A DNA stretch of 51,083 nucleotides from a virus (lineage: Duplodnaviria > Heunggongvirae > Uroviricota > Caudoviricetes): IMG/VR virus record IMGVR_UViG_2541047841_000011; one strand, written 5' to 3'. The position numbers were made by a program, and so were the translations under genes. Positions 2,179 to 17,216 of this stretch are shown here, piece by piece (position 1 is the stretch's first letter; each line of letters starts with the position of its first letter). The notes beneath the pieces were generated by a model. It was not told the DNA's origin, searched no databases, and worked only from the letters and a program-made list of their open reading frames with translations.

Positions 2179-2286
2179 ATGAACCAGCAGTCCGCAAAAC
2201 GTGAAAACAATGCGATGCGATTTAATCGCAAATATTTTGAGTTCGGCCTCTATGCCGGAATAATTAAATCTGTACAGAGTCTTTAA
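2179..2286 (+). CDS. Small ORF (35 aa), hypothetical
   Basis: ATG at 2179 with strong GGAGG RBS 11 nt upstream; stop TAA 2284-2286 directly abuts ATG of next ORF (TAAcATG); below ORF-track length cutoff. Confidence 0.3.
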   Translation: MNQQSAKRENNAMRFNRKYFEFGLYAGIIKSVQSL

Positions 2287-2287
2287 C

Positions 2288-2629: not shown

Positions 2630-2639
2630 CAGGTGCTTT

Positions 2640-2927: not shown

Positions 2928-2935
2928 AGGGCGTT

Positions 2936-3181
2936 GTGATGGGCAAAGAATATAAAACTCTCATTAACAAAGCACTTGAGCGTTTTTATTTTCGCTTAAG
3001 TGCATCAGGCGCTCATGCTGAACGTGCGGCCCGTGACTCATTGACCAGAGCAATCCGAAGTCTGTATGACGTGGCTTTTTACGCTGATGATCTGGATGCA
3101 CTTAACGAACTTTCCGAGCTGATCTGTGCCGCAGAGTGCGGGGAACATATTGAACCGTATAAGCTGGGGAATATCGCATGA
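2936..3181 (+). CDS. Hypothetical early-operon protein (81 aa)
   Basis: ORF with GTG/ATG start at 2936/2939; stop overlaps next small ORF start (ATGA). Confidence 0.5.
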   Translation: MMGKEYKTLINKALERFYFRLSASGAHAERAARDSLTRAIRSLYDVAFYADDLDALNELSELICAAECGEHIEPYKLGNIA

Positions 3182-3291
3182 GTATATTTATCTCATGGCT
3201 TGTTCTGATTATTTCGGTGGCCTGCGCTATTGGGATTATGCGAATTATTCATTCAATAAAAAAGATTGAACGCTTTTTCACTGGCGAATAA
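3178..3291 (+). CDS. Small hydrophobic peptide (37 aa), putative single-TM
   Basis: ATG 3178 overlaps upstream stop (ATGA); translation MSIFISWLVLIISVACAIGIMRIIHSIKKIERFFTGE is one hydrophobic helix plus basic tail; below ORF-track cutoff. Confidence 0.3.
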   Translation: MSIFISWLVLIISVACAIGIMRIIHSIKKIERFFTGE

Positions 3292-3376
3292 CAGAGCAAA
3301 TAAAACCACAGATTAAATAAGAAAATGTAAAACAATCCGCATTCGCGGAGGTATTCGCACACGCCAAGGAGGCGTA

Positions 3377-3580
3377 ATGGCAATTAAGCATTTTCCTGTC
3401 GTTCGTTTTACCTCCAGAGGGCGTGAATACGAAGTCGACGAACGCCTGATTACCACAATCGACAAACACCGTTCAGAAAAGGATGCACATCACATCTATC
3501 TCACTGACGGCACTTACTTCTGCGCCACGAATGTGGTGCGGGTGAACCTTATCCGACAGGTACAGGAGTCACGCAGATGA
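3377..3580 (+). CDS. Hypothetical early-operon protein (67 aa)
   Basis: Excellent RBS AAGGAGG 7 nt upstream of ATG; stop overlaps next start. Confidence 0.6.
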   Translation: MAIKHFPVVRFTSRGREYEVDERLITTIDKHRSEKDAHHIYLTDGTYFCATNVVRVNLIRQVQESRR

Positions 3581-3822
3581 CCATTCTGGACTATATCGCC
3601 GCCAATCCGGGGTGTAGCGGTGGAGAAATCGCCGCAGCACTGAATACCCCAACCACAGCCATTAATGCGGAGTTACGCCGACTCTGGCGCAGCGGTTCAG
3701 TCATAAGAAAAGAGCGCAAAACAGGCGGTCGCTTTTCTTACCAGATAAACCCGATGCCGTTCGGGTGCGGCAATCCACTTACCAACATGTTTAACCAGCT
3801 ACTGAAGGAAGCCAGAGCATGA
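3577..3822 (+). CDS. Small winged-helix-like DNA-binding protein (81 aa)
   Basis: ATGA overlap with upstream gene; segment GCSGGEIAAALNTPTTAINAELRRLWRSG is a helix-turn-helix-like pattern. Confidence 0.5.
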   Translation: MTILDYIAANPGCSGGEIAAALNTPTTAINAELRRLWRSGSVIRKERKTGGRFSYQINPMPFGCGNPLTNMFNQLLKEARA

Positions 3823-4118
3823 GCGCCATCAACCACCAGGAATTACGCGAACTGGCGACTGACCTGCAACGAATGGCAACGCCTCAAAAATTACTGGCGT
3901 TTCGCGCAATGCTCTCGCCGTCTGCTGTGCTGGCGCTGCTGGATGAGCTGGAGCACGCCAGAACCACACCTCTCGCCATTCGCCTGACGCTCCGTCATGA
4001 AATCGAGGATTTCTGCGCGACGTTGGAGGCGCCAGGCGAACCGGAAACGCCGGAAGCAATACAGCAAGAGCTGCTGCAACGCATTGACAAGGTTTTTGAT
4101 TTTTTTCTGAACCACTAA
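3819..4118 (+). CDS. Hypothetical early-operon protein (99 aa)
   Basis: ATGA-coupled ORF, acidic helical protein; followed by 320-bp non-coding region. Confidence 0.5.
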   Translation: MSAINHQELRELATDLQRMATPQKLLAFRAMLSPSAVLALLDELEHARTTPLAIRLTLRHEIEDFCATLEAPGEPETPEAIQQELLQRIDKVFDFFLNH

Positions 4119-4440
4119 GAAACCAGAACATGCACACACAAAAAAACCGCTTGCCATGCCGCAATCAGTCAGGTTACATTTCCGCTGCACCTCACAAAAC
4201 GGGTGCCGGGTTTCGCAGCCTGCTGACTACACAAGCGCACAACCGCGCCAGCGTTTTTTTTGTGCGTACTGTATTGCCACGTTTTTTTCGCGTCAGAATT
4301 ATGGCGGGGCGTACGGGGCCGACTTCGGTCGGGCCGGGTTCTTGTGTAGCCGGTACTGCGAACCTCGTACGTCTCGCCACCCACAGTTTCGCAGCTCTGG
4401 ATGGTGAGTTTTCACAACTTACTACACAAGGGGCCACACC
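4119..4440 (+). other. Structured non-coding region (candidate sRNA/regulatory element)
   Basis: 320 bp without credible ORF inside an otherwise tightly packed operon; hairpin GGCCGAC-TTCG-GTCGGGCC at about 4317..4336; motif TACACAAG at about 4229 and 4424 and inverted as CTTGTGTAG at about 4343; direct repeat GTTTCGCAGC at about 4211 and 4387; T8 run at 4253..4260. Mirror 46644..46965. Confidence 0.4.
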
Positions 4441-4671
4441 ATGGCAAACCGCAAACCACACCGCGCTATCGCGGAGCGTCGTCACATCCAGACTGAAATC
4501 AACCGCAGACTTTCCCGCGCATCACGCGTCGCGCAAATCATGCACATCAATATGCTGCATGAGCGCAGCCACGCACTATCAAACATTTATTCCGCCTCTG
4601 TTTTCAGCTATCTGGCGGATGATCTGCACGAGCTTCAACAGCTCATCCAGCAGCAAAACAAACTCCATTAA
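4441..4671 (+). CDS. Hypothetical protein (76 aa), basic
   Basis: ORF directly after the structured non-coding region. Confidence 0.45.
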   Translation: MANRKPHRAIAERRHIQTEINRRLSRASRVAQIMHINMLHERSHALSNIYSASVFSYLADDLHELQQLIQQQNKLH

Positions 4672-4743
4672 CTCCTGTTCCGGGCCTTTCCTGCACCTTG
4701 CGGCGGGAGGCCTTCGCACATCTGTAACAAGAGGATTGCCGCA

Positions 4744-5109
4744 ATGATTCTCGCCAACGACTTTCTTGAATACCTGCTCAACACAGAACGTGATCTTGCC
4801 GCTCGCGTGCGTGATCGTTATGACATGTACCTGAAATCCCTGCCTGTACCGCAGCTCGCTGACGGAAAGATTGTTATTGATGGTCGCTACATGATTGACA
4901 GCCACGAGGGAAATTACAGGCTTTACCGCATTGAAGGTGGCACCCCGTCCGTTATTGGCATTTACCAGCGCCCATCCTCTGCAATCGTCGATGTGATTGC
5001 CGACAGCATCCGCATCACACATCGCCATGCCGACACAGAAGACACCGTGCTGGAAATTCAGCGGCTGGCTACAGTCTGCCGCGACACCCTGAATGGCATG
5101 ACGAAGTAA
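4744..5109 (+). CDS. Hypothetical protein (121 aa)
   Basis: ORF immediately upstream of gpA with AGAGGA RBS-like sequence. Confidence 0.5.
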   Translation: MILANDFLEYLLNTERDLAARVRDRYDMYLKSLPVPQLADGKIVIDGRYMIDSHEGNYRLYRIEGGTPSVIGIYQRPSSAIVDVIADSIRITHRHADTEDTVLEIQRLATVCRDTLNGMTK

Positions 5110-5115
5110 ATCACT

Positions 5116-7938
5116 ATGACGGCAGAGTACATCAGGGGCTGGCAACAACCGCGCCACGCAGTGGGGCGTGAAGGAACGGGGATCCCCGCTCCTGAATCCG
5201 CGCTTTCCTCCTGGCTGGATGCCTACCGGGTAGAGAACGAGCACCGCCAGGAAATGGCTGATGCGGCGTTCTCCGCAACGCCGCTGGGCAACCTGATTAA
5301 TAAAAGCCTGAACGCACAGGAAAAACAGGACAAAACCATCACACTGGCAGGAGATGCCAGAAAACAGGCACGCGGCGCGGTGGATGAAGCCATGGCCTCG
5401 CTGCGCCTGCTGCCGTCCTATCTGCGCGATCCGCTTATTCGCCACCTCTCCTTCCTGCGCAAAAAACAGGAAGCCGATCGTCAGAAAGGCAAAAAGAGCT
5501 GGCAGGCTGAACGCTACGCGCGCGGAAACCTGCGCAAAATATTCGAACGTCTGGATCGCACCGATCACCGCTGGCTGACACAGGGTTATCGCTCCCTTGC
5601 CGGACGCGAACGCCTGGACGATTTGCTTTACCTGCCGCAGCTCAACAAACACCAGATACAGACACTGGCCACCATGACGGCGGCGATGTTCAGCAGCACC
5701 TTCGAAAAACTCTGCGATGGCTTTGGCGCGACCGATGGCGAACTGACCATGGATGTAACGCTGAAGGCGTATCAGATGCTGGCCCGCATGGCGTTACACC
5801 TGCACGCCATGCCTCCACATTATGACGCACTGACAACAGACAAAGACCGGAGGAACGAACCGGACACGGAGCTGCTGCCGGGCGCAATCCTTCGCCTGAC
5901 CTGTGCAGAATGGTGGAAACGCAAACTGTGGCTGTTACGTTGCGAGTGGAGAGAAGAACAACTCCGCGCCGCCTGTCTGGTTTCCAGAAAAACATCGCCC
6001 TATCTGAGCCAGGACGCGTTAAGCGAGTTTCGCGCACAGCGCGAGAAAACACGCGATTTCCTGAAAAGTTTCATGCTGGAAAATGAAGACGGGTTCACGA
6101 TTGATCTCGAGACGGTGTATTACGCGGGAGTAAGTAACCCGGTTCACCGTAAGGCAGAAATGATGGCCACCATGAAGGGGCTGGAACTTCTGGCCGAAGC
6201 CCGTGGCGACAAAGCGGTGTTTCTGACTGTCACCTGCCCGTCAAAATACCACGCCACAACAGAGAACGGTCATCCGAATCCCAAATGGAACGGGGCCACC
6301 ATGCGCGACTCCAGCGATTACCTGGTTAACACGTTTTTTGCGGCGGTCCGCAAAAAACTGAACCGCGACGGTCTTCGCTGGTATGGCATCCGCACGGTGG
6401 AGCCTCACCATGACGGCACCGTGCACTGGCATATGATGGTCTTTGCGCATCCGGAAGAAATCGACAGCATCGTGGCCATCACCCGCGATATTGCCATTCA
6501 GGAAGACCGCCACGAGCTGGGCAATGATATTACTCCGCGCTTTAAGGCGGAGTATGTCGACGGCTCAAAAGGCACACCAACCAGCTATATCGCGACCTAC
6601 ATCGGAAAGAACCTGGACAGCCGCGCCGTGGATGGCATCGACCCGAAAACGGGCAAGCCACGCGTTGACCACGAAACCGGAAAATCAATGGCCGAGAGTG
6701 TGGAGCGCGCCATCGGCTGGGCGCGCCTTCATCGGGTCCGCCAGTTCCAGTTCTTTGGCATCCCCTCCCGTCAGGTGTGGCGTGAACTGCGCCGCCTTGC
6801 CAGCCAGATGGCACGCAACCCGGAAGGCCCGCAACGACTGAAAGATGACGCAATGGATGCGGTACTCGCTGCCGCCGATGCCGGGTGTTTTGCCACCTAC
6901 ATTGAAAAACAGGGCGGCGTACTTGTTCCACGCAAAGACTACCTGATTCGCACCGCCTACGACCTCGCAGATGAGCTGAATGATTACGGCGAACAGAGCG
7001 TACAGATTTACGGGATCTGGTCACCACTCATCGGGGAATCCTCCCGTGTGTGCACGCATCCGGATAACTGGAAACTGGTAAGACGTAAACCGGAAACGGA
7101 AGACAGCGCCCGCGAAAATGGTTTTGACCTTCAGGGCGGCCCTGCCGCCCCTTGGACTCGTGGCAATAACTGTCCCCGTGTACAGGAAACGGACAACAAC
7201 GGGACAGAACAGCCGGAAGAACGGCCAGCACCGTGGCCGCAGCTCCCTGACGGCGTTGAAGTGAACGAATGGATGCGCTCACTGAAACGACACGAACGCC
7301 GGGCGCTGATGCGTTCGCTTCGTGACAAACAGGCAAAAAACAGCAGCGATGAAATGCAGAGCTGGACACAGAGCCGCAAACAGCAGCGGCCTTTGCCTGA
7401 TAACCACGAATTACTCGCTAAAGAATGGCGGGAGTCTGCTGAATCTCTCGGCCTGCATATCGGTGAACAACAGATGCAGCACCTGTTACGGGGCGGCAGT
7501 CTGTACGTTGACGGCAGCATCATTGCACCGCAGGGATTTGAAATTGTACGCAAACCGGATACCCGCCCGGACAGCCGAATCACGCAGCTCTGGCAGCGCC
7601 TGAGCCGTAATCACGGCGTAAGCAGCACGGAGATCCGCCATAACCCGGTCTCCAGCTATCTGGCACAGCTCGGGGCATCAGACCCCGAAGCCGCCGCACG
7701 CCTGGCATCCACACTTCAGCAGGTCCAGAACACCATGAAAACACCCGTTACCGTGCTTTCTGACATGCTGCGCGCCATTCGTGACGCAGAGCACGCACAG
7801 AGAATCAGAGAAACCACTGAACGCGCCCGCCGCAAAGCAAACCTGCTGAGGACTGGCCTGACCAGTGGAAACAAAAAACAGACAGAAACGGGATTCACAA
7901 ATCCCGTAAATGAGCAAAAAACGCGCCGCGATATATGA
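5116..7938 (+). CDS. A: Rolling-circle replication initiator (P2 gpA-like HUH endonuclease), 940 aa
   Basis: HUH motif TVHWHMMVF and paired-tyrosine motif YIATYIGKN (YxxxY) typical of superfamily-I RCR initiators; position matches P2 A; about 300 extra C-terminal residues. Confidence 0.88.
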   Translation: MTAEYIRGWQQPRHAVGREGTGIPAPESALSSWLDAYRVENEHRQEMADAAFSATPLGNLINKSLNAQEKQDKTITLAGDARKQARGAVDEAMASLRLLPSYLRDPLIRHLSFLRKKQEADRQKGKKSWQAERYARGNLRKIFERLDRTDHRWLTQGYRSLAGRERLDDLLYLPQLNKHQIQTLATMTAAMFSSTFEKLCDGFGATDGELTMDVTLKAYQMLARMALHLHAMPPHYDALTTDKDRRNEPDTELLPGAILRLTCAEWWKRKLWLLRCEWREEQLRAACLVSRKTSPYLSQDALSEFRAQREKTRDFLKSFMLENEDGFTIDLETVYYAGVSNPVHRKAEMMATMKGLELLAEARGDKAVFLTVTCPSKYHATTENGHPNPKWNGATMRDSSDYLVNTFFAAVRKKLNRDGLRWYGIRTVEPHHDGTVHWHMMVFAHPEEIDSIVAITRDIAIQEDRHELGNDITPRFKAEYVDGSKGTPTSYIATYIGKNLDSRAVDGIDPKTGKPRVDHETGKSMAESVERAIGWARLHRVRQFQFFGIPSRQVWRELRRLASQMARNPEGPQRLKDDAMDAVLAAADAGCFATYIEKQGGVLVPRKDYLIRTAYDLADELNDYGEQSVQIYGIWSPLIGESSRVCTHPDNWKLVRRKPETEDSARENGFDLQGGPAAPWTRGNNCPRVQETDNNGTEQPEERPAPWPQLPDGVEVNEWMRSLKRHERRALMRSLRDKQAKNSSDEMQSWTQSRKQQRPLPDNHELLAKEWRESAESLGLHIGEQQMQHLLRGGSLYVDGSIIAPQGFEIVRKPDTRPDSRITQLWQRLSRNHGVSSTEIRHNPVSSYLAQLGASDPEAAARLASTLQQVQNTMKTPVTVLSDMLRAIRDAEHAQRIRETTERARRKANLLRTGLTSGNKKQTETGFTNPVNEQKTRRDI

Positions 7939-7983
7939 AGCGCGCACAAAACAGGCGAAAGCGGGATTTAAAAATCCCGTAAA
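7871..7983. repeat. Two 40-bp direct repeats, each with an 18-bp palindrome (parC-like centromere or ori element)
   Basis: Unit 1 at 7871..7910 (inside gpA 3-prime end) and unit 2 at 7944..7983 match at 32/40; each contains CGGGATT(T/C)A(A/C)AAATCCCG; lies directly upstream of the ParM-like gene. Mirror 43101..43213. Confidence 0.5.
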
Positions 7984-8014
7984 CGGTTAATTAACCAACA
8001 TAAGGAAAATCGAC

Positions 8015-8974
8015 ATGAAAATTTGTATCGACGACGGCTCCACCAACATCAAGCTGGCATGGACTGAGAATGGCGAACGCCGCAACGCCATCAGCCCGAA
8101 CAGCTTCAAGTCGGAATGGTCTGCGCCGTTCGGTGGCATGCAGCCCGCGAACTACATGCTTGATGGCGTGCGCTATGGTTTTGATCCGGTCAGCGATCGC
8201 TTTGTCCAGACGACCGACACGCAATACCAGTACAGCGATGTGAATGTAATCGCCATTCATCACGCGCTGGTCAAATCAGGCATCACGCCACAAGAGGTGG
8301 ATGTGGTTGTCACCCTGCCACTGAGCGAGTATTTCGAGACAAACGCACAGCCGGACATGGCCAACATCAACCGCAAAAAAGCGAACGTTATGCGCTCGGT
8401 GGAGTACCAGAACGGCGAAGCATTCACTATCCGTAACGTGCGGGTTATGCCTGAATCCATTCCGGCTGGCTTTAAAGCACTGGCTGACATGAGTCCGTTT
8501 GAATCCCTGCTGATTGTGGATTTAGGCGGAACCACGCTGGATGTGGCAAAGGTTCAAGGGCAACTGGCAGGTATCAGCCAGGTGTTTTGCGATCCACACG
8601 TAGGCGTTTCCCTGATGGCCGATGCCGTACTGTCGGTGATGGCCACTAACGGTATGCGCACCAGTCACCACATCGCCAATACCATTATCGAACATCGCCA
8701 TGATGAAGCCTGGCTGCGCCAGCACATCCACAATGACGCGCATTACGCCAGCCTGATGGCGGTTATTCGTGAAAAGGAAGAAACACTGAAACAACGCGTG
8801 ATCCGCGCGCTGGCGGTTTTTTCGGGTTACGGGCGGGTGATGGTTGTCGGTGGAGGGGCGGAGATTGTGGCACCCGCTATCCGCGAAGTCTGCGGAGTTA
8901 ATGCGACTTTCATCGCGGACGGGGTGCCACAGTTTGCTCTGGTTAATGGGCTGTACGCAATGGACAAGGAGTAA
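8015..8974 (+). CDS. parM: ParM/StbA-like actin-fold ATPase
   Basis: Actin-fold motifs IDDGSTNIK (phosphate 1), VDLGGTTLD (phosphate 2), VGGGAE (adenosine); length 319 aa as for ParM. Confidence 0.78.
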   Translation: MKICIDDGSTNIKLAWTENGERRNAISPNSFKSEWSAPFGGMQPANYMLDGVRYGFDPVSDRFVQTTDTQYQYSDVNVIAIHHALVKSGITPQEVDVVVTLPLSEYFETNAQPDMANINRKKANVMRSVEYQNGEAFTIRNVRVMPESIPAGFKALADMSPFESLLIVDLGGTTLDVAKVQGQLAGISQVFCDPHVGVSLMADAVLSVMATNGMRTSHHIANTIIEHRHDEAWLRQHIHNDAHYASLMAVIREKEETLKQRVIRALAVFSGYGRVMVVGGGAEIVAPAIREVCGVNATFIADGVPQFALVNGLYAMDKE

Positions 8975-8978
8975 ACCA

Positions 8979-9293
8979 ATGACGACACCAACCAGACGGA
9001 TAAGTTTCTATCTGAAGCCCGCCGCCGTCAAGAGTGAACAGGAGGCGTGCAATTACCTCGATAGCCTGCCAGCCTCCGAACGCAGCCGCGCGCAACGCGC
9101 GGCCTTTCTGGCTGGGCTAGCGCTCATAAAGCGCAACCCAGCATTTGCCTACTGGATGGCCGAATGGCCAGAGGACAACCTCCCCTTCAATACCGTTAGC
9201 ATCAAGGAAACATACCAGGATAATCAGCCTAGCGGAGTTGAATGCAATTTTTATAAAATTGCAAAGAATATTCAGACCTTATTCCCAGAATAA
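8979..9293 (+). CDS. parR: ParR-like centromere-binding adaptor
   Basis: Internal ATG of ORF 8844..9293 with AGGAG RBS; RRISFYLKP...ERSRAQRAAFLAGLAL matches the ParR ribbon-helix-helix N-terminus; immediately downstream of the ParM-like gene. Confidence 0.68.
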   Translation: MTTPTRRISFYLKPAAVKSEQEACNYLDSLPASERSRAQRAAFLAGLALIKRNPAFAYWMAEWPEDNLPFNTVSIKETYQDNQPSGVECNFYKIAKNIQTLFPE

Positions 9294-9341
9294 TCTGATA
9301 ATTGTATGTGAACTAATAAAATACAGACCAACACATCATTC

Positions 9342-9366
9342 TGGCACCCTTGCTAACAGGGTGCCA
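9342..9366. terminator. Bidirectional hairpin between parR-like gene and convergent cargo operon
   Basis: TGGCACCCT-TGCTAAC-AGGGTGCCA, 9-bp perfect stem, between convergent stops at 9293 and 9377. Mirror 41718..41742. Confidence 0.5.
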
Positions 9367-9376
9367 ATGTTTCAAA

Positions 9377-10219
9377 TCATGATGAAATTGCCGAAGTTTT
9401 TTTATCGTGCTGAAGTACCGCAAATGCCATTAAAACCTCAAGAGAATAGCGGCGATAATACTTAACAAAACCATAATAAAATACTCGGGATGCAGCAATA
9501 CAAAACAAGAGAAGAAAACAAAAAGGTAACAGTCTGATATTTATATCTATTAAAAAGGATAGAAGGAGCAGGAACATAAGCAACCAGACTGAAGCGAGAA
9601 AAACAAATGTAATGTTTCTACAAAAACCATACAAAGCAACATAGTTTTGCATTTTCACCTGATGATTTTTAGAATGTTCATACACATAATGATAAGCAAG
9701 GCGAAAAAGATCGCCCCTCAAGCCCTTACGTCGATATAGCGTAGATACAGAAAAAACATTTATATAACCATCTCGTATTTGCGGCCAAAAGACTTTAATA
9801 AGTATAGAATGCAGTGTGGTTTTATGATGTTCTGCTTTATCAAAAGCTGATACAGGAAATAAAAAAACTCCACGAATAAAATTAACTATACTGAACTTAG
9901 TATTATGTCGTTTTATTTTCAGGGAGCTTCTTTTAGAAAACAGATAAATTGAAGGATACCCAAGTTTACTGTTCATGTATTTTTCAATTAAACAGGATGA
10001 TAGAATAGATATGAAGTGACCTGAAATATATGATAGAACGATTAATACCACATATATAAATACACTTATTATTTCTTTATATTTCAGGATATGGTTAAGA
10101 ATACCTTCTATATAAACAGGGTTAATTTCAATAGAAAACAAAAAAAGGATAAACAGGAATAACCCACCTGGAATTAGATAGCCCAAAAAGTCATAAAATG
10201 AAAACGGATTCTGTGTCAC
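9377..10219 (-). CDS. Polytopic membrane protein (280 aa), unknown function; low-GC cargo
   Basis: GTG start with GGGGGAAG RBS; at least 4 hydrophobic helices (e.g. FLGYLIPGGLFLFILFLF, IISVFIYVVLIVLSYISGHFISIL, ITFVFLASVWLLMFLLLLSFLI, LLPFCFLLLFCIAASRVFYYGF); GC about 30-35 percent against about 55 percent in the backbone. Confidence 0.7.
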   Translation of the reverse strand: MTQNPFSFYDFLGYLIPGGLFLFILFLFSIEINPVYIEGILNHILKYKEIISVFIYVVLIVLSYISGHFISILSSCLIEKYMNSKLGYPSIYLFSKRSSLKIKRHNTKFSIVNFIRGVFLFPVSAFDKAEHHKTTLHSILIKVFWPQIRDGYINVFSVSTLYRRKGLRGDLFRLAYHYVYEHSKNHQVKMQNYVALYGFCRNITFVFLASVWLLMFLLLLSFLIDINIRLLPFCFLLLFCIAASRVFYYGFVKYYRRYSLEVLMAFAVLQHDKKTSAISS

Positions 10220-10258
10220 ACTTCCCCCTGTGTTACTTGTAAATTAAAGGGTAAAACA

Positions 10259-10756
10259 TTATTTGTTTTTCCGTAAAGGATTAGCTTTCCATCTTCTTAC
10301 TAACCATTCGAATTCTTGATATGTAGTATCCGAATTAATGCTTTCTCTGATTGCTTTAATTAATGGCTCGGCAATATCATATGTCTCTACAACTGTTGTG
10401 TAAGATGTTCTTTTTATCATTTTTTCATCATAAATACCTTCACGAATACTTACAGCAACTCGCTCGTAAAAATTTAAAATATATTGAAATTTTCGGCGCT
10501 CGGCCATTTCTTCATCTGTTATTATGCAACCATCACAAGGAAAAACATAAGAACGAAATGATTTGCCTGAACGATGCACTTGTTTCAGGGTATGCAATGA
10601 CTCTATATATTGCATATCTTGCCGACTCTCAAAAAGAAAGTTGGCCGTTTGAGTTTTTTTTGCGGTACGCACATTGTAGATAATGGTTCCAATGGCAACC
10701 AAAACGCCAAGCAGAACAATAGTATTGCTGATGATTTGTAGTGTTATTGGGTTCAT
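10259..10756 (-). CDS. Single-pass membrane protein (165 aa) with soluble C-terminal domain, unknown function; low-GC cargo
   Basis: N-terminal helix ITLQIISNTIVLLGVLVAIGTIIYNV then charged domain with CDGC motif; 39 bp upstream of the 280-aa gene on same strand, so likely an operon. Confidence 0.7.
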   Translation of the reverse strand: MNPITLQIISNTIVLLGVLVAIGTIIYNVRTAKKTQTANFLFESRQDMQYIESLHTLKQVHRSGKSFRSYVFPCDGCIITDEEMAERRKFQYILNFYERVAVSIREGIYDEKMIKRTSYTTVVETYDIAEPLIKAIRESINSDTTYQEFEWLVRRWKANPLRKNK

Positions 10757-10774
10757 CCTATTTCATCCATAAAA

Positions 10775-10805
10775 AAGGCGGGGAGCAAATCCCCGCCTCA
10801 TTAGA
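10775..10805. other. Candidate cos (cohesive end) site
   Basis: Minus-strand sequence TGAGGCGGGGATTTGCTCCCCGCC contains GAGGCGGGGA, matching the core of the P2/186 cos sequence as I recall it (GGCGAGGCGGGGAAAGCAC); located between cargo and portal, where P2 has cos. Mirror 40279..40309. Confidence 0.4.
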
Positions 10806-10953
10806 GGTCAACGTAGCTTAGAAACCATCAAATTCATCATACATTTTATTCATATCAACCCCCTCATAGAAATCATAACCACGTTTTGTGGTTTTTGTGA
10901 CGTATAAACTACATCAAAGGCAAGCCACGGTCAAATATATAGGCATGCTTACC

Positions 10954-10980
10954 TGCACAAAAGTGCACAAATTTGCACAA
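10954..10980. repeat. Three 10-bp-phased TGCACAA repeats in cos-proximal region
   Basis: cTGCACAAaagTGCACAAattTGCACAAttttttt, plus a fourth GTGCACAAAAAAA at about 11045; candidate terminase/IHF-type binding array. Mirror 40104..40130. Confidence 0.35.
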
Positions 10981-11353
10981 TTTTTTTGAACGACTTTTTA
11001 CCCTTCCGGCCCGCATGGCGGCTGGATCCGTCAAGGATCCGTGCGTGCACAAAAAAACGCGCTTTTTCTGCGCGCAGGTGACGGGGGAACAGCCCGCGTT
11101 TCAGGGGGTAAATAGTATTCCCTGAGCGATGTCGCAGCGACATAACAGAATGGCCATATTTCTCACGCTGAGCGTGAAAAAGATGTGAGGGCTTTTGATT
11201 TGATGGGGTGAAAGGTAAGGCCGTCAAAATCGCACTGAGGCGGTGAGAACATGCAGTCAGCGCGGTGGGATTGCGTAAGAGTCTGACCGTCGATGATGGT
11301 AATAAACAGGAAAGCGTCGTGAAATTATCTGATTGATACAGGAGCTGGAGAGT

Positions 11354-11378
11354 CGGGGCATAAATTTTTTATGCCCCG
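11354..11378. terminator. Perfect 11-bp hairpin downstream of portal gene
   Basis: CGGGGCATAAA-TTT-TTTATGCCCCG, 26 bp beyond the portal stop. Mirror 39706..39730. Confidence 0.5.
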
Positions 11379-11404
11379 CCGAAGCAGCAGACAAGCGAAG
11401 CGCG

Positions 11405-12451
11405 TCAGGATGTGGGCTGGGTGTCTAACAGTGCGTAAGGGTTAAAGCGAATCACCTCTTCGCCAAGCCAGTCATTGATGTGCTTCATGGCCTCCATGAC
11501 GGGCATCAGCTCGTTAATTGCGTAAACCCGCGCGGCCTTCTCCACATCACCAAACGCACTTTTTTCGCCTGGCATCGCCCCCATCAGTTGCGGCGGAACG
11601 CGGTGCGCAGCCAGCACATCATCACGGGATGCCACCTTAACATTCATGAACTCATCCTTTGCGGTGATCTGCTGGAACGGCAAAATTTGCACCCCCTCTT
11701 TGCCACCGTTGGGCGCATGAATGAGCACGTTTTTAAACGCACCACCACCACGCGCACCCTGTAGCGTTTCTTTCAGGGAGTCCATGCTTTCGCGGTTTAC
11801 CTGCGCTGCACCGATGTAGATGATGCACCCGGCGTGGGATCCGTTGTCGTAATACAGTTTTCTGAACATGTCCGCCGAATGAGACAGGCTGGCCGAGAGT
11901 AATGCGCCGAGATATTCCGGCATGCCGTAGATTTCCTGGTTAATGTCAGGATTCATCAGGTGGCACACTTTGCCAGGGCGAAACTGAAACGCGTCCTTGC
12001 CATCCTGCACATACCACCATGATTCAAGATCGCTTCCGCGTCGCATGTATTTCGCCAGGGCGTGCCGTAATTTAAGCGGTTCGCCGAGCATATTGCTTCG
12101 AAGCTCAAGGAATGCGTTACCGAACACAAACCAGTCCAGCGCCAGCGCCGAGAAATCCTGCCGGGAAAGCAACGGGTGCGGGATGTAGCAACCGAGTAAT
12201 ACATTGCGCTTAAAGTAAAGCGCAGACTGATGCCAGGACGTTTGCCGGGCAGCTCTTGCCAGACCGTACCAGTCCACCGGGGTTTCATACCACCGCCCGT
12301 TATCAGCACAGTACATATTGTCCAGCAGGTCATGCCCGGTCAGGCGATAAGGACCATCAAATGTGAATGCACTGAGCGATGATTCTTTCCTGAGCGCATC
12401 AGCGAGATCAATGCGTGAACTCATGCGCACTTTTTTATTTTTTCTGCTCAT
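11405..12451 (-). CDS. Q: Portal protein (P2 gpQ-like)
   Basis: 348 aa; downstream of and translationally overlapped (TGATG) with large terminase on the leftward strand, as in P2 P-Q. Confidence 0.88.
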   Translation of the reverse strand: MSRKNKKVRMSSRIDLADALRKESSLSAFTFDGPYRLTGHDLLDNMYCADNGRWYETPVDWYGLARAARQTSWHQSALYFKRNVLLGCYIPHPLLSRQDFSALALDWFVFGNAFLELRSNMLGEPLKLRHALAKYMRRGSDLESWWYVQDGKDAFQFRPGKVCHLMNPDINQEIYGMPEYLGALLSASLSHSADMFRKLYYDNGSHAGCIIYIGAAQVNRESMDSLKETLQGARGGGAFKNVLIHAPNGGKEGVQILPFQQITAKDEFMNVKVASRDDVLAAHRVPPQLMGAMPGEKSAFGDVEKAARVYAINELMPVMEAMKHINDWLGEEVIRFNPYALLDTQPTS

Positions 12452-14202
12452 CAGAACTCCATAACCGTGAAACGCTCGTTTTCTCCTTCGCCGCCAATTG
12501 GTTCGTTAATGACAGCAAGCATGGTTGCCCACGCAAGGTCGCCGTGGCTGATCCCCCTCGCGCGGTCCGTTTCGTAAGTGATAAAGCCGCCCGGTGTTTT
12601 CACCTTACGCACGGCGTTAAAGGCCGCGACCAGCTCGCGTTCGGCGCGATCGTATTCCCACCGCCCGGCACGCATTATTTGCAGCATTTTCAGTACCAGC
12701 GACCGTTTTGATGACAGCGTGAAGGTGTACGGAATAGCGGCAGGGAAAAACCGTTTCACTATCTGATAAACAGCCTCCCCGTTCCCGCCCGTCACATCAA
12801 TGCCGATGTGTTCCACGTTGTAGCGACACGTGAACTCTTCAATGACTCTGGCCTGTTCTTCAAACTCCAGCCCCTGAACGCGTCGCGTCTCTACCGTTCG
12901 AAAACGGCCACCAGGAACAGACGGAGGAACCACCACGGACACAGCGCCGCTGTCGCCGTTGCCACTGCTGCCGTTTGCGTCATACCCAATCCATACCGGA
13001 CGATTCCCCATCGGGCGGGGAGCAAAAGGTTTCCAGTCTTTCCAGTCGTCGTATCCGTCAACACCGCAGCCAATCAGGATATTCAGGTTAAATGCCGATT
13101 CCCCTTCGCGGACAAACTCACACATATAGAGATTGAGGAACTCGTCTTCGGTGTTTTCATCACGAATTTCGTCGATATCGGTGTGTTCCCAGCCGTGATT
13201 AACCACATCTTCCAGCGTGACAATTTGCCGCCACGTCCGGTCAGGGCAGATAAGCCCGTTATGCAGCGCTTTCCAGTCCACAGAAAAACGCTGGCGTTTA
13301 TGCGTGACCTTTTTCTCGTTCCAGCGGTCGCCGTTCCAGTAGGCGTATGCCTCGTGCATTTCGGTGGATGGCGTGGAGAAGTAGGTGCGCCGCAGTCCGC
13401 TGAGGGTTGCCATAGCGCCAGCCACCTTGCGCAGTTCAGCAAAGCGACTGACCCAGAAAAATTCATCAAAATAAAAATTGCCCGTATAGGACTGTGCCGA
13501 CGCAGCAGAAGTGCCGAGAAAATGCAGCTCTGCGCCGTTGGAGAGGATGATTTTATCGCCCCCTTTCAGCTCCACATCAACTTCAGCCGCGGCCTTCTGA
13601 ATAATGCTTTTAAACTGGAACGCCTGACGACGCGACGCAGACAAAAAAATCTGGTTACGCTGGTAAGGTTGCGCCACATCGTCACGCAGCGCCATCAGCA
13701 GCGCTTCCTGTGCAAAATACCAGGTCGCCCCAATCTGTCGGGATTTCAGGATCATCCTGTTACGTATCCCTGCTTCCCTGCAAAGGGTCAGGGAGTCAAA
13801 CCAGCCCCGCTGATGCCACTCCAGCCTGCTGATGATTTTTTCCCGCAGTGCGGCAATCTGTTCCGGCGTGAAATGATTTTTAAGCTTTTTCGCCCGGCCT
13901 TTCTTTCCTGTGGCCGTCGCATCCGGCTGGCCATCATGCAGTTTTTTAAGCTGCCGGGTCAGCAGGTCTATTTCCTTGAAGTCACCACCTGTTTTATTCT
14001 GTTTTTCAGTGAGCTGGATGAGGCGCGCATCGATGGACTGCGTGACACGCTGCACGGGTGGCGTTTCATCCCACTGGTCGCGTTTTTTCCACGCATAAAT
14101 CGTGTTCGGGTTTATTCCCATCAGACGTGATATTTCTGCGGGCGGATAACCCTGCCAGTAAAGTTGCCGCGCACGCTGGCGCACAAAAGCGTCCTGAATC
14201 AT
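12451..14202 (-). CDS. P: Terminase large subunit (P2 gpP-like ATPase/nuclease)
   Basis: 583 aa; Walker-A-like MILKSRQIGATWYF; divergent from scaffold/capsid operon. Confidence 0.93.
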   Translation of the reverse strand: MIQDAFVRQRARQLYWQGYPPAEISRLMGINPNTIYAWKKRDQWDETPPVQRVTQSIDARLIQLTEKQNKTGGDFKEIDLLTRQLKKLHDGQPDATATGKKGRAKKLKNHFTPEQIAALREKIISRLEWHQRGWFDSLTLCREAGIRNRMILKSRQIGATWYFAQEALLMALRDDVAQPYQRNQIFLSASRRQAFQFKSIIQKAAAEVDVELKGGDKIILSNGAELHFLGTSAASAQSYTGNFYFDEFFWVSRFAELRKVAGAMATLSGLRRTYFSTPSTEMHEAYAYWNGDRWNEKKVTHKRQRFSVDWKALHNGLICPDRTWRQIVTLEDVVNHGWEHTDIDEIRDENTEDEFLNLYMCEFVREGESAFNLNILIGCGVDGYDDWKDWKPFAPRPMGNRPVWIGYDANGSSGNGDSGAVSVVVPPSVPGGRFRTVETRRVQGLEFEEQARVIEEFTCRYNVEHIGIDVTGGNGEAVYQIVKRFFPAAIPYTFTLSSKRSLVLKMLQIMRAGRWEYDRAERELVAAFNAVRKVKTPGGFITYETDRARGISHGDLAWATMLAVINEPIGGEGENERFTVMEF

Positions 14203-14356
14203 TGCTCCCCCTGAGTAATTACAGGAAGATTACCCGCGCGCGAAACTGTTCTCCTTAACCCCCTGTTCTGGCCGTTTTCTTACAACAAAAGCCCTTTGTA
14301 TCAGCCTGTTACGCTTTGCCATCATGACTGAAGAACCAGTCAGAGGGGCAAAAACT
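14203..14356. promoter_or_regulatory. Divergent late promoter region (P-Q leftward, O-N-M-L rightward)
   Basis: 154-bp gap between divergent late operons; I could not find a clean TGT-N12-ACA Ogr-type element by eye. Mirror 36728..36881. Confidence 0.4.
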
Positions 14357-15193
14357 ATGGCTAATGAAAAAAAGACATCCCGCAAAAAGTTTCGCGTGGC
14401 TGTCTCCGGTGTAACGGCAGACGGGCGCGAAATCAACGGCGACATGCTGAAAGCTGCCGCCACCAGTTATAACCCGTCCGTTTATGGTGCACGTGTGAAT
14501 ATTGAGCACATCCTGTCACCACTCCCCGGTAGCGAGTTTTCCGCTATGGGCGATGTTGTGGGGTTGAGCACCGAAGACATAACCGATGGCCCGCTGGCAG
14601 GCCGCACGGCACTGTATGCCGAAATTGAGCCGACCGCTCGCATGATGTCCCTGCTTAACGATGGTAAAAAAATTTACTCCAGTATTGAGCTGGAACCACA
14701 GTCAACCATCACGGGAGGCCCTTACCTGCGCGGGCTGGCAATGACCGACACCCCTGCCAGCCTGGGCACGGAACGTCTGGCCTTTGCGGCACAACAACGT
14801 ATGCAACTGATGACATTCAACTGTCAGCAGGGAGACGTGGCGATGTTTACCGCCGCTATGGAGTCAGAACTTATCGAACTCACCGAACAACGTCAGGAAG
14901 AAGGCACCCAGTGGTTTAACCGCGTTATGGGGATTATTGGCCGTGGCCGCAAAGCGGATGACGCCAGTTTCTCCCGTATTCAGGAAGCGGTGGAAGGTGT
15001 CGCAACGTCACAGGCCGACATTATCGACCGTTTTAATGCGCTGGAAACCCGCCATCAGCAGGACAGCCAGAAAATCACTTTACTGACCACAGAGCTGACA
15101 GCACTGAAGGAAAAACTGCGCACGCAGGACGGCGATCCGCAGAACCGGTTCACCGCAACGGGCGCAGCCTCCGATCAACTGGCTGACTTCTGA
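14357..15193 (+). CDS. O: Capsid scaffolding protein (P2 gpO-like)
   Basis: Internal ATG (MANEKK) of ORF 14324..15193 with GAGGGG RBS; conserved YGARVNIEH and GLAMTDTPASLGTE segments as in gpO. Confidence 0.85.
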   Translation: MANEKKTSRKKFRVAVSGVTADGREINGDMLKAAATSYNPSVYGARVNIEHILSPLPGSEFSAMGDVVGLSTEDITDGPLAGRTALYAEIEPTARMMSLLNDGKKIYSSIELEPQSTITGGPYLRGLAMTDTPASLGTERLAFAAQQRMQLMTFNCQQGDVAMFTAAMESELIELTEQRQEEGTQWFNRVMGIIGRGRKADDASFSRIQEAVEGVATSQADIIDRFNALETRHQQDSQKITLLTTELTALKEKLRTQDGDPQNRFTATGAASDQLADF

Positions 15194-15216
15194 TAAGACA
15201 AAGGAGCAAATTTTTT

Positions 15217-16269
15217 ATGAATCTGGTGATGTCAGATATTACCCGCAACAAGCTGGGTTGCTATATGGCGCAGCAGGCGTCGCTTAACAACATCCCGGTA
15301 TCTGCACTGGTATCGCGATTTACCGTGGAACCCTCGGTGCAGCAGCGTTTTGAAAACGCAGTAAAGGAGAGCACTGAATTTACAAAAAAAATTAACGTGT
15401 TCGGTGTGACCGACCAGAAAGGCGAAAAAATCCTCCTGGACACCACCGGGCCGATTGCGCGCACGAATACCAGTTATGACGGCACAAAACGCCGTAACCC
15501 GAATAACGTGGTTGATCTGAAAAACCGTAAATATCAGTGCGAACAGGTGAACTACGACACGTTTATTTCGTATCCGCAGCTTGATGCCTGGGCGGCACAC
15601 CCTGATTTTCAGTCACGCGTCAGCACACAGATTGCCCGGCAGGTGGCGCTTGACCGCATCATGATCGGTTTCAACGGCACGTCTCACGCAGATGAGTCCA
15701 ACTTCAGCACCAACAAGCTGCTTCAGGACGTTAACGTGGGATGGCTGGAGCACATCAGAACCGACGCCAGCGAGCGCGTAATGAATGACGTGACGCTGAC
15801 CTCCCGCAACATGGACAACACCGTGGCGCACGCGGGTAAGTATGCGAACGCTGATGCACTGGTACAGGACGCGCGCTCATCCCTGCTGGATGAATGGCAC
15901 AAGGAAGCTGACGACCTCGTGGTGATTATGGGGCGCAACCTGTTTAACTCGCTGCGTCTGCCCGTGCTGAACAGCATCAGCGGCCAGAATCCCAATGCGG
16001 AATTACTTGCCGGACAGCTCATCCTGTCATCGCGCGCCATTGGCGGACTGGATGTATTCCTTGCGCCGTTCTTCCCGGATTCAACGATGCTGATCACCTC
16101 GTTCAACAACCTGTCGATTTACTGGCAGAAAGGAACAATGCGTCGCCTGATGAAAGACGAGCCGGAATACAACCGCATCGCCACCTACCAGTCCATCAAT
16201 GACGCTTATGTCGTTGAAGACTATGGCAAGTGCGCGATGGTCACTGGCCTGAAGTTCGCCGACAGCTAA
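15217..16269 (+). CDS. N: Major capsid protein (P2 gpN-like)
   Basis: 350 aa; AAGGAG RBS; FTVEPSV..., LSIYWQ and DAYVVEDYG segments similar to gpN. Confidence 0.9.
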   Translation: MNLVMSDITRNKLGCYMAQQASLNNIPVSALVSRFTVEPSVQQRFENAVKESTEFTKKINVFGVTDQKGEKILLDTTGPIARTNTSYDGTKRRNPNNVVDLKNRKYQCEQVNYDTFISYPQLDAWAAHPDFQSRVSTQIARQVALDRIMIGFNGTSHADESNFSTNKLLQDVNVGWLEHIRTDASERVMNDVTLTSRNMDNTVAHAGKYANADALVQDARSSLLDEWHKEADDLVVIMGRNLFNSLRLPVLNSISGQNPNAELLAGQLILSSRAIGGLDVFLAPFFPDSTMLITSFNNLSIYWQKGTMRRLMKDEPEYNRIATYQSINDAYVVEDYGKCAMVTGLKFADS

Positions 16270-16314
16270 TCAACTCACGGCGGGCATCATGCCCGCCTGT
16301 AACGGAGAGAAAAA

Positions 16315-17115
16315 ATGATTACTCCTGCACAGCAACACTGGCAGAACGTGATGGCACAGCGCGCAGGCCGGGCGAATGAAGGCGTGGACCACGCCGCGCG
16401 TACCGCGCATGAAGAGGTGCTGTATCGTCTGCGTCTGGCACAGGCCCGACTTAAGGGCGTACAGGCCAGAAGCGCGAAAGCCGCCATCAAAAAAGAGTTG
16501 TTACCGGACTTTTCCGGCTGGATTGAGGGAACGCTGGAGGCTGACGGCGGGCAGCAAGATGAAGTGATTGCCACGCTGATGGTGTGGGCAATTGACTGCG
16601 GCGATCTTCCGCTGGCGCTGCGTATTGGTGCGTATGTGGTCCGTCACAACCTCATCATGCCGGATAACTTTGACCGTACTGCTGCCACGGTACTGACCGA
16701 AGAAATCTGTAATCCGGTACTGACGCAGGCCGGGACGGATGCCGACGCGGATTTGTCCGCCTTTATCGAACCACTGGACACCCTCCGGGAGATTGTCACC
16801 GACCAGGACATGCCGGACGAAGTGCGCGCCAAATTATGCAAGGCGTGCGCCTTTGCCCGTCGTGGCCTGACCGATGCGGACAGCATGGCCTCATCACTGA
16901 AGCTGCTGCGCGAAGCGATGCACCTGAACCCGAACGCAGGTGTGAAACGCGAGATTGCAACCCTTTCCCGCGCCCTGAAAAAAGCCGATTCCGCAGCCGC
17001 ACCAGAAGATGCCAGCACACCGCAGGCGCAGGACGAAAGCAGCAAAAGTAAAAAGACAACGCGGAAGCCTGCAACACGAAAAACCACCGCGACGCAGAAG
17101 GCGAAGCGCGGTTAA
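16315..17115 (+). CDS. M: Terminase small (endonuclease) subunit (P2 gpM-like)
   Basis: 266 aa with basic low-complexity C-terminal tail; position between capsid and head completion genes. Confidence 0.8.
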   Translation: MITPAQQHWQNVMAQRAGRANEGVDHAARTAHEEVLYRLRLAQARLKGVQARSAKAAIKKELLPDFSGWIEGTLEADGGQQDEVIATLMVWAIDCGDLPLALRIGAYVVRHNLIMPDNFDRTAATVLTEEICNPVLTQAGTDADADLSAFIEPLDTLREIVTDQDMPDEVRAKLCKACAFARRGLTDADSMASSLKLLREAMHLNPNAGVKREIATLSRALKKADSAAAPEDASTPQAQDESSKSKKTTRKPATRKTTATQKAKRG

Positions 17116-17216
17116 CGACTGACCCCGTCAGCGGGCGGCGTGCGCGGTGTTCCGGTTTGACTCCGTGACCGTTTACACCGCACACCCACCGCCCGATTTT
17201 TTCAGGAGTGAACACC

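Follow-up and report, generated by a model that had tools for sequence, protein, structure and literature searches.

Genes and setting of the island

The window, that is, the whole 51,083-nt stretch of viral DNA analysed here, carries at 9295..10760 an island of 33.3% GC, against 51.9% and 54.5% in its flanks. The low GC attributed to it in an earlier sequence-only reading is thereby borne out, as is the presence of two open reading frames on the minus strand, at 10756..10259 (165 aa, ATG start) and 10219..9377 (280 aa, GTG start), with a gap of 39 bp between them (Table 1). Both are real genes, since purifying selection acts on both (dN/dS 0.28 and 0.11). To the left lie the replication endonuclease, ParM and partition genes (5116..9293, plus strand), and to the right the portal and terminase genes (11405..14202, minus strand). 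The island had been described as antisense to both flanks, which is correct for the replication and partition side but not for the portal and terminase genes, whose strand it shares. The bounds given above likewise stand for the core only; upstream the functional unit reaches to about 10934 and takes in a promoter, a leader ORF and a terminator.

The element that hosts the island is a P88-like (Xuanwuvirus) E. coli prophage of the P2 family. Within it the island fills the cos-adjacent gpA–gpQ variable slot, in agreement with its earlier assignment to the P2 tin/old hotspot; the P2 defence hotspot was delimited by Rousset et al. (2022) as the cos-proximal stretch between gpA and gpQ, where P2 itself carries old and tin. 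Different cargo occupies exactly the same site in other P88-like phages. The term undescribed, applied to it earlier, fits the locus in part: at least 161 entries for it are catalogued in Table S5 of Rousset et al. (2022), but it is not among the systems assayed in that study. The gene pair is present in about 283–289 of 5,426 complete E. coli genomes, all of one lineage. Counted this way, about 5% of the complete E. coli genomes, JJ1886 and other ST131 strains among them, have the island in a recognised defence hotspot.

At 40324..41789 the mirror copy repeats the island exactly as its reverse complement but is probably no second biological copy. The window has the form A, centre, reverse complement of A, a palindrome that probably arose when the assembly folded back on itself at an invertible tail-fibre segment. 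The hairpin reported on the downstream side is confirmed, with a 9-bp stem that folds better than shuffled sequences (z = -3.1), but no U-tract follows it.

Table 1. Coordinates of the genes and of the DNA and RNA elements of the island and its upstream region
Feature	Position	Strand	Basis or remark
Hairpin closing the transcription unit at its 3' end	9342..9366	-	kept in the diverged allele L037
280-aa four-TM inner-membrane protein, Csx27 superfamily; co-transcribed with DUF4760 here	9377..10219	-	PHROG, PADLOC, AlphaFold
DUF4760 protein, 165 aa, single-pass anchor and cytoplasmic all-helical domain	10259..10756	-	Pfam, PHROG, AlphaFold, hydropathy/charge
Conserved nucleotide box ATGGATGAAA, between terminator and DUF4760 start	10761..10770	-	column conservation
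Intrinsic terminator, 10-bp G+C-rich stem and U-run	10771..10799	-	ends 18 nt ahead of the DUF4760 start codon
Anti-SD box GTTGACCTCT, predicted partner of the leader SD region	10803..10812	-	conserved 'TAACCTC' column block
5-bp stop-codon hairpin, loop UCUA	10814..10827	-	RNAalifold
SD GAGGGGG (10865..10859) and leader ORF (10853..10818), MNKMYDEFDGF-stop	10818..10865	-	translation
5' hairpin AACCAC-AAAAC-GTGGTT, between promoter and leader SD	10877..10893	-	fold prediction
Candidate sigma-70 promoter: -35 TTGACC (10934..10929), 17-nt spacer, -10 TAGTTT (10911..10906)	10906..10934	-	sequence reading, prediction

The two proteins

Neither product had been recognised in the sequence-only reading. 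The 165-aa protein belongs to Pfam DUF4760 (PF15956; 120.2 bits against a cutoff of 25, E=1e-34), its residues 12-156 aligning with profile positions 2-141 of 141, and to PHROG family phrog_2284 (E=1.6e-73). It is thus a full-length, high-scoring member of a family without described function. NCBIfam matched neither island protein. The predicted structure (AlphaFold, pLDDT 92.7) and hydropathy agree with the single N-terminal TM helix noted earlier, and hydropathy and charge analysis predicts an N-out/C-in topology with the anchor at residues 8-26. The 'CDGC' motif singled out in the soluble domain is not conserved, C75 and C78 being freely variable among 37 homologues.

The 280-aa protein is polytopic, as had been proposed. 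Its AlphaFold model has helices at residues 8-27, 48-85, 184-224 and 231-279; three of the four are called TM by hydropathy and charge analysis, which also predicts that the basic loop of about 120 aa at residues 74-195 is cytoplasmic. The protein falls into phrog_12528 (E=1e-71). Its own match to the PADLOC Csx27 model is weak (E=1.1e-5, 23.9 bits); among distant members of its family 99 of 143 match that model (best E=2.2e-10) and 31 match tm_4. These profile matches support membership of the Csx27 superfamily, not orthology. Passages of PMC7642515 and PMC11662929 describe Csx27 as an accessory membrane protein of type VI-B1 CRISPR-Cas13b with four predicted TM helices and, citing Makarova et al. 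(2019), as a predicted nucleic-acid membrane channel. The four predicted TM helices are shared with Csx27, and HMM similarity to it extends through the family of relatives. The 280-aa gene differs in being stand-alone prophage cargo, placed beside xis/int or in the P2 hotspot; neither cas13b nor a CRISPR array lies beside it, its neighbours being DUF4760, a partition gene and cos/portal. Its subfamily is set apart by the large basic loop and by the motifs GDLFRLAYHYVYE and QNYVALYGFCRN, and has no Pfam model. Residues F6, Y64, G67, S74, E79, R201 and K253 of the 280-aa protein are invariant. Where checked, relatives outside the P88-like lineage lie just before xis/int in lambdoid prophages. 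A 180-aa gene upstream of one relative of the 280-aa gene was considered as a partner and rejected as a YfdR-like HD-domain backbone gene. With the 280-aa protein, the Csx27 family and its predicted nucleic-acid channel would reach into prophages of enterobacteria that are genetically tractable.

The leader region upstream of DUF4760

Equivalents of the candidate promoter (TTGACN-16..18-TAnnnT) are found in 23 of 42 distinct DUF4760 upstream regions, and 20 of the 42 have a palindrome, ATTACC-N5-GGTAAT, in the spacer and -10 element. A consensus promoter scan gave another candidate, with -35 at 10901 and -10 at 10872. The place of the 5' hairpin is taken by a hairpin of different sequence in 24 of the 42 regions.

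The leader ORF (M-K-K-x-F-DEFDGF-stop, with the C-terminal pattern [DE]E[FY][DE]G[FLIC]-stop) accompanies DUF4760 in 66 of 68 loci and comprises 33 distinct peptides. In every one of the 33 the stop codon stands immediately 3' of an F, L, I or C codon. Judged from codon comparison, selection acts at the level of the peptide; third positions vary and the amino acids are kept. Exact matches to the motif in 1.48 Mb are directly upstream of DUF4760 in 71 of 73 cases, and a literature search for DEFDGF returned no relevant match.

Several RNA elements overlie the end of this ORF and its SD. In the stop-codon hairpin, the 5' arm runs from the Asp wobble base through the Gly codon to the first U of the Phe codon, and the 3' arm starts with the final stop-codon base. 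The hairpin positions pair in 83.7% of cells, compared with 74.4% in shuffles (0/500 as high) and 10-50% in slid controls; covariation is 0.438 compared with 0.278 (0/500), in a comparison whose controls leave part of the effect of sequence relatedness. Equivalent stems of different sequence are seen in Pseudomonas and in locus L081. The anti-SD box pairs with 10863..10854 in the MFE fold. Across 26 sequences the SD:anti-SD helix is paired in 71.5% of cells, with the core pairs kept in about 20 of 24, which gives this predicted pairing moderate support. The anti-SD core (CCUC) lies 11-14 nt beyond the stop codon, at or past the expected edge of a terminating ribosome. An outer helix, P1, formed in the MFE fold by the 5' flank of the SD and the ATGGATGAAA box with its AUGGAU, is just 61.6% paired across sequences and is regarded as a candidate. 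RNAalifold and the MFE fold gave no convincing stable anti-terminator helix in the leader, and a permissive Rfam scan of 9200..11450 gave chance-level matches only.

Nearly all loci have the intrinsic terminator in this place, and L019, L020, L043, L044 and L045 show compensatory variants of its stem. The default transcription path stops 18 nt short of DUF4760, and the interval from the terminator to the ATG is too short to hold a promoter. DUF4760, and here also the downstream 280-aa gene, must therefore depend on read-through. The ATGGATGAAA box was considered as a second, coupling mini-ORF, but its frame relative to DUF4760 varies among loci, so that it is taken to be non-coding.

The order expected of an attenuator, an SD-preceded short ORF followed by an intrinsic terminator and then the gene, is present in 66/68 loci. 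The leader is somewhat more likely than not a translation-coupled attenuator. It has in common with the ermC, msrD, tnaC and trpL attenuators the short SD-preceded uORF and the intrinsic terminator before the regulated gene, as well as a peptide conserved up to the stop and RNA helices over the ORF end and SD; for msrD the combination of a leader peptide with a terminator is documented (PMC10314930). The DUF4760 leader differs from them in its new motif, DEFDGF, and in having no clear anti-terminator. It also differs in its target, a prophage membrane-protein gene instead of a biosynthetic or resistance one.

Proposed organisation and function of the island

The explanation preferred here, whose chances as a whole are judged to be about even, is that the island consists of two mobile, lysogen-protective cargo cassettes that have become stacked. 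Two independently mobile single-gene cassettes would lie head to tail at the cos-adjacent hotspot and, here, share one transcript. The first would comprise, in order, the promoter, 5' hairpin, 11-codon leader ORF, stop-codon hairpin, anti-SD box, intrinsic terminator and DUF4760. The nascent peptide ending in DEFDGF-stop may pause or perturb the terminating ribosome, which would melt the stop-codon hairpin and come up to the edge of the anti-SD box. Refolding of the leader could then set the level of read-through and of translation, in the manner of ribosome-mediated attenuation of the ermC, msrD and tnaC type. The products would be an N-out/C-in DUF4760 protein with a cytoplasmic helical domain resembling the plant EP domain (see below) and a Csx27-like protein with four TM helices and a large basic cytoplasmic loop. 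Each by itself, working on the cytoplasmic side of the inner membrane, may shield the lysogen, whether by keeping superinfecting DNA from entering or through a membrane-based abortive response.

Small inner-membrane proteins that are encoded in prophage cargo positions and act at the inner membrane include P22 SieA, T4 Imm, HK97 gp15 and lambda RexB. The island proteins, which would work in a comparable way, resemble these in position and topology only, and no homology to them was found. Tin, Old and the AC1 2TM+1TM+TIR system (Rousset et al. 2022) occupy the same gpA–gpQ slot beside cos, and AC1 too encodes small TM proteins there. No sequence relationship of the island to Tin, Old or AC1 (Rst_2TM_1TM_TIR) was detected with PADLOC at E<=1, and the island contains no TIR, ATPase or nuclease gene. 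The PADLOC check suggested earlier returned no validated system with its required partner genes, for the island or in family-wide DUF4760 scans; the PADLOC v2 output for the island at E<=1 consists of Csx27 and weak matches to PDC-S35 and PprPIWI.

On this analysis an anti-phage function of the island genes is plausible, with chances that fall somewhat short of even. A less likely alternative, though the strongest of those considered, is that neither gene is anti-phage and that both encode lysogenic-conversion or host-physiology membrane proteins carried as fitness cargo, for example in envelope, ion or translation-stress adaptation, with the leader sensing a physiological cue. In four genera DUF4760 is also present as a singleton on the chromosome, where it lies syntenically between nrdAB-yfaE and glpT, and a role in host physiology therefore fits it as well as defence does. 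The classical leader-peptide attenuators respond to metabolic or translation state, and DUF4760 has no match in defence databases. Most P2-hotspot genes of unknown kind, moreover, are not predicted to be antiviral (15% of unknown P2 proteins are so predicted by machine-learning tools and 32% by a context-aware method). Against this, DUF4760 is strongly biased to prophage cargo sites, namely the P2 defence hotspot, the position right after a co-oriented cI gene in a Pseudomonas phage, and sites adjoining int/att in Acinetobacter phages. The 280-aa family has a CRISPR-associated protein among its relatives, and the low GC and mosaicism of both genes are typical of mobile cargo.

One module or two cassettes

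The sequence-only reading took the two membrane proteins for an exclusion or Abi module comparable in function to RexA/RexB; as one cooperating system, this would combine a sensor with a membrane effector. The genes do share an orientation, are separated by 39 bp in which no terminator was found, encode inner-membrane products with cytoplasmic domains and sit in a defence hotspot. The pair is also stable: about 289 E. coli genomes and the L037 allele keep the spacing unchanged, although the 280-aa gene of the latter is just 87% identical, and cooperation within this lineage is conceivable. Outside one E. coli lineage, however, the genes are not kept as a pair. Among 44 viral contigs with DUF4760, 35 have no 280-aa gene and nine have the pair, all nine belonging to the E. 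coli P88-like lineage. No 280-aa relative lies near DUF4760 in genomes of other species (0/22), and DUF4760 is absent from all 59 viral contigs with 280-aa relatives outside the P88-like lineage, which makes co-occurrence beyond the single lineage 0/22, 0/35 and 0/59. In a sister phage, the Citrobacter Xuanwuvirus, DUF4760 alone fills the same site, and the recurrence of the pair in P2-like prophages beyond that lineage, which had been put forward as a check and whose absence was to count as refuting the module, was not seen; 21 further P2-like prophages have a cos-adjacent DUF4760 and no 280-aa gene. The regulatory leader goes with DUF4760 in every context, and in L037 the two genes are discordant in divergence (dS 0.05 versus 0.28). 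A single cooperating system is accordingly improbable, and the island very probably consists of two independent single-gene cassettes. Two autonomous cassettes change the experiment to be done, as the genes would have to be assayed singly.

Resemblance of DUF4760 to the EP domain

The predicted DUF4760 fold matches the EP domain of the plant EDS1 family (EDS1, PAD4, SAG101), with the same topology by two methods; the match has 7-12% sequence identity and a Foldseek E of >=0.4, and the TM helix is inside the matched part. Titles of structure entries name EP domains as receptors for small molecules that TIR enzymes produce. DUF4760 could by this analogy be tethered to the membrane as a receptor, or a sponge, for nucleotide-derived immune signals, akin to the EP domain in fold and function, that either causes membrane damage when its ligand binds or protects the phage by sequestering a host TIR-type signal. 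The DUF4760 family would then be bacterial and phage relatives of the EP domain whose synthesis is gated by a ribosome-sensing attenuator of a kind not described before, with a nascent peptide ending in DEFDGF-stop.

This proposal, drawn from structural models, is quite improbable, marginally more so than that of a single cooperating system. The all-helical fold and its topology are shared, but all-helical folds can converge, and homology is only a possibility. A Pfam scan at E<=1 gave no sequence-profile signal to the EP domain or to EDS1, PAD4 or SAG101, and the DUF4760 family profile run against PDB sequences found solely a nopaline-binding protein (E=1.7). EDS1-family proteins have an N-terminal lipase-like domain and form heterodimers that bind pRib-AMP/ADP or ADPr-ATP, whereas DUF4760 has only a TM helix before its helical domain and is a membrane-anchored, single-gene unit lacking a TIR partner. 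In about 80 loci it has neither a TIR nor any other signal-generating gene linked to it, and there are no domain fusions among the 120 profile-search matches listed, all of which are single-domain. A literature search on prokaryotic relatives of the EP domain found nothing, and one on the name DUF4760 led to an unrelated genomic-island paper that mentions neither the leader/terminator unit nor an EP-like fold. A prokaryotic antecedent is already known for TIR domains; to our knowledge, the origin of the EP domain outside seed plants is not known. If the EP-like fold did reflect homology, a plant immune receptor module would be linked to prokaryotic mobile elements and the EP domain would gain a prokaryotic antecedent of its own.

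The leader as product or regulator

It is very improbable that the 11-residue peptide is itself the product, its gene ended by the terminator and DUF4760 reached by leak-through, perhaps with an acidic, aromatic C-terminal tail that mimics the SSB C-terminal tip: the amino acids and free C-terminus are conserved, and a strong SD and a separate terminator go with the ORF, but the peptide is tied to DUF4760, the covarying RNA elements over the stop codon and SD point to cis-regulation, and peptides of about 11 residues are usually unstable. Read as a regulator of DUF4760, the leader is a compact and highly conserved peptide/terminator switch with a new motif that lends itself to easy dissection by reporter assays and toeprinting, and it could show which signal the prophage monitors before making a membrane protein.

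Genomic setting of the island

The low-GC island at 9295..10760 (33.3% GC, against 51.9% upstream and 54.5% downstream) carries two ORFs separated by 39 bp, as the sequence-only reading had described. Both are real protein-coding genes, as dN/dS relative to a diverged allele is 0.28 and 0.11. Their orientation, described as antisense to the flanking genes, is so toward the replication, ParM and partition side and not toward portal and terminase. The sequence at 9366..9342 folds into a hairpin with a stem of 9 bp; it is more stable than shuffled sequence (z = -3.1) and lacks a U-tract.

Features of the island, its flanks and the centre of the window
Feature	Coordinates	Strand	Remark
Replication endonuclease, ParM and partition genes	5116..9293	+	island genes convergent with these
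ORF, 280 aa, GTG start	10219..9377	-	280-aa protein
ORF, 165 aa, ATG start	10756..10259	-	DUF4760
Intrinsic terminator	10799..10775 + U-run	-	ends 18 nt ahead of DUF4760 start codon
Leader ORF, 11 codons, MNKMYDEFDGF, preceded by Shine-Dalgarno (SD) sequence	10853..10818	-	upstream of terminator
Portal and terminase	11405..14202	-	island genes co-directional with these
Tail-fibre-like ORF, 744 aa	22614..24848	+	
Tail-fibre-like ORF, 842 aa	25942..28470	-	

The phage is P88-like (Xuanwuvirus, Peduoviridae). In P2, a cos-proximal defence hotspot between gpA and gpQ holds old and tin (Rousset et al. 2022). Placement of the island in this hotspot is correct, because P88, PhiR44_2 and Chuche hold unrelated cargo at the identical site. 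In P88-like phages a ParM/StbA and Plasmid_stab_B partition pair, here at 8015..9293 (+), lies between gpA and the cargo, and the hotspot contents defined by the Rousset pipeline take in these genes (Rousset et al. 2022). Compared with a Citrobacter relative, the small partition protein is 53% and ParM 98% identical.

Three phage records carry the 2.3-kb region, as do 289 of the 5,426 complete E. coli genomes, always at 99-100% identity. The DUF4760 part alone, used as query, is found in 299 genomes (283 with at least 80% coverage), including ST131 strains, and the same gene arrangement occurs at least 161 times in Table S5 of Rousset et al. (2022). IS421 (IS4-like) is inserted in this locus in several E. 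coli genomes (hits H32-H36), again including ST131. In a P2-like hotspot of Trabulsiella guamensis (L025, 989..1153) a leaderless DUF4760 remnant, residues 109-163 only, lies beside other cargo, which shows cassette turnover at the site.

DUF4760 and the 280-aa gene as separate genes

The two genes had been read as one module, which the comparison of 22 species loci and 44 + 59 viral loci does not support: pairing is absent outside one E. coli lineage. With one genome scanned per species, neither the 280-aa protein nor relatives at 45% identity were found near DUF4760 in any of the 22 loci. There DUF4760 is a solitary low-GC gene. Some copies occupy this hotspot in further P2-like prophages, some lie in prophages of another kind, and some are chromosomal singletons, e.g. 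between nrdAB-yfaE and glpT in four genera. Among the 44 viral contigs with DUF4760 the pair occurs in nine, all of the E. coli lineage; 21 are P2-like prophages with the order terminase-portal-cos-DUF4760 and no 280-aa gene, and 14 show other contexts. In a sister Citrobacter Xuanwuvirus, DUF4760 stands alone with cos on one side and a partition gene on the other. Where checked, proteins related to the 280-aa one at 36-47% identity are encoded in lambdoid prophages by the last gene ahead of xis/int, and DUF4760 is found in none of 59 viral loci with such relatives outside the P88-like lineage.

One diverged copy of the pair (L037) encodes a DUF4760 99% identical and a 280-aa protein 87% identical to those of the window. 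Between L037:768-1610 and window 9377..10219, only a central stretch of the 280-aa gene has diverged (dS 0.28 vs 0.05), its 60-nt blocks being 77-92% identical; toward both gene ends, and in the neighbouring DUF4760, identity is 97-100%. This pattern indicates a recombination mosaic with exchange inside the 280-aa gene.

The two proteins

The 165-aa protein is a full-length member of Pfam PF15956 and phrog_2284. Homologues across Enterobacterales are 40-99% identical, and more distant ones occur in Pseudomonas, Alteromonas and Acinetobacter phages. In a Pseudomonas phage the gene lies immediately 3' of cI and in the same orientation, and in Acinetobacter phages it adjoins int. Among the 120 profile matches listed, all are single-domain proteins of ~165-211 aa and no domain fusions are seen. 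A CDGC motif, pointed out earlier, is not conserved. Hydropathy and charge predict one TM helix at residues 8-26, an outside N-terminus and a basic, cytoplasmic remainder. The AlphaFold model is all-helical and of high confidence (pLDDT 92.7, pTM 0.80), its predicted fold being EP-domain-like.

The 280-aa protein belongs to phrog_12528 and has no Pfam or NCBIfam family. Profile searching with its family, which has strongly conserved polar motifs, gave 1,096 representative clusters. The PADLOC Csx27 model is hit independently by 99 of the 143 distant members (best E = 2.2e-10) and tm_4 by 31; both models are associated with Cas13b. Csx27 is described, in work cited by PMC7642515 and PMC11662929, as a Cas13b repressor with four predicted TM helices and a predicted ssDNA channel. 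The model of the 280-aa protein (pLDDT 69.9) and hydropathy fit four TM helices with both termini inside, and the predicted topology has a basic cytoplasmic loop of ~120 aa (20 K+R). By these profile matches the protein is assigned to a prophage branch of the Csx27 superfamily and not to Csx27 proper, because no cas genes lie near its gene.

A conserved leader upstream of DUF4760

The terminator leaves only 18 nt and thus no room for a promoter before DUF4760, so that read-through of the terminator is obligatory. The same leader arrangement precedes DUF4760 in 66 of the 68 loci with enough upstream sequence, in any genus or context. The peptide consensus is M-[KR]-K-x-[FY]-D-E-[FY]-[DE]-G-F-stop, and variants persist where DUF4760 identity falls to 26-46%. 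Third-codon positions vary with the amino acids kept; selection therefore acts on the leader peptide itself. The motif has 73 exact matches in 1.48 Mb of sequence, and 71 of them are directly followed by DUF4760. The remaining two (L052/L094, one contig) lie 1,432 nt upstream instead of ~100 nt, consistent with an insertion that may separate DUF4760 from its putative attenuator.

A 5-bp hairpin spans the leader stop codon, the Asp and Gly wobble bases covarying with bases just past the stop (RNAalifold). It is 83.7% paired, compared with 74.4% in shuffles and 10-50% in slid controls, and its covariation score of 0.438 (vs 0.278) is reached by none of 500 shuffles. In the MFE fold the leader SD pairs with a conserved ACCUCU box (71.5% of cells paired), and the terminator stem has compensatory variants. 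Many loci, including those on chromosomes, have in common a candidate promoter, TTGACT-17-TAATTT, and a 5' hairpin whose sequence varies. The analysis shows this cassette architecture, the need for read-through and conservation at the level of the peptide.

A palindrome, ATTACC-N5-GGTAAT, lies inside the promoter spacer/-10 in 20 of 42 distinct upstream regions, chromosomal singletons included, and may be an operator for a regulator. It is seen upstream of the leader in, e.g., L006, L011, L040, L056, L059 and L066; the window's copy (10906..10934, -) is degenerate. A 46-kb E. coli plasmid (NZ_OZ282456.1, 6877..7043) matches promoter and leader at 79% (query 509-678, window ~10767..10936) with nothing annotated beneath, one of seven plasmid places in all, and could hold a DUF4760 cassette that is more distantly related. 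The leader C-terminus (…FDEFDGF-COOH, 10818..10853, -), acidic and aromatic, looks like the C-terminal tips of single-stranded-DNA-binding proteins, that of E. coli SSB being …DFDDDIPF.

Possible regulation and function

The leader layout matches the ribosome-mediated attenuation architecture of msrD (PMC10314930). The nascent DEFDGF-stop chain would affect the terminating ribosome and hence leader folding, as in a translation-coupled attenuator; no anti-terminator was identified in the leader. The element has no match in Rfam or the literature, and this undescribed putative leader-peptide switch, always accompanying DUF4760, is of interest alongside the EP-domain-like predicted fold and the prophage branch of the Csx27 superfamily.

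Each protein on its own, at the cytoplasmic face of the inner membrane, could protect the lysogen. The prior that a cloned hotspot system is active is about one third, and DUF4760 was not found in the table of tested systems (Rousset et al. 2022). Machine-learning tools predict 15% of unknown P2 proteins as antiviral, and 32% with a context-aware method. An anti-phage function is a serious yet tentative possibility, falling somewhat short of probable.

Palindromic structure of the window

The window consists of an arm (1..23895), a 3.3-kb centre (23896..27187) and the arm's exact reverse complement (27188..51083). The supposed mirror copy of the island at 40324..41789 arises only from this arrangement. 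The two tail-fibre-like ORFs of the centre are convergent, with N-termini common to both and encoded in the arms, and an ORF of ~175 aa comes after each. The centre resembles a Mu G or P1 C-type invertible tail-fibre segment, which looks to have provoked an assembly fold-back.
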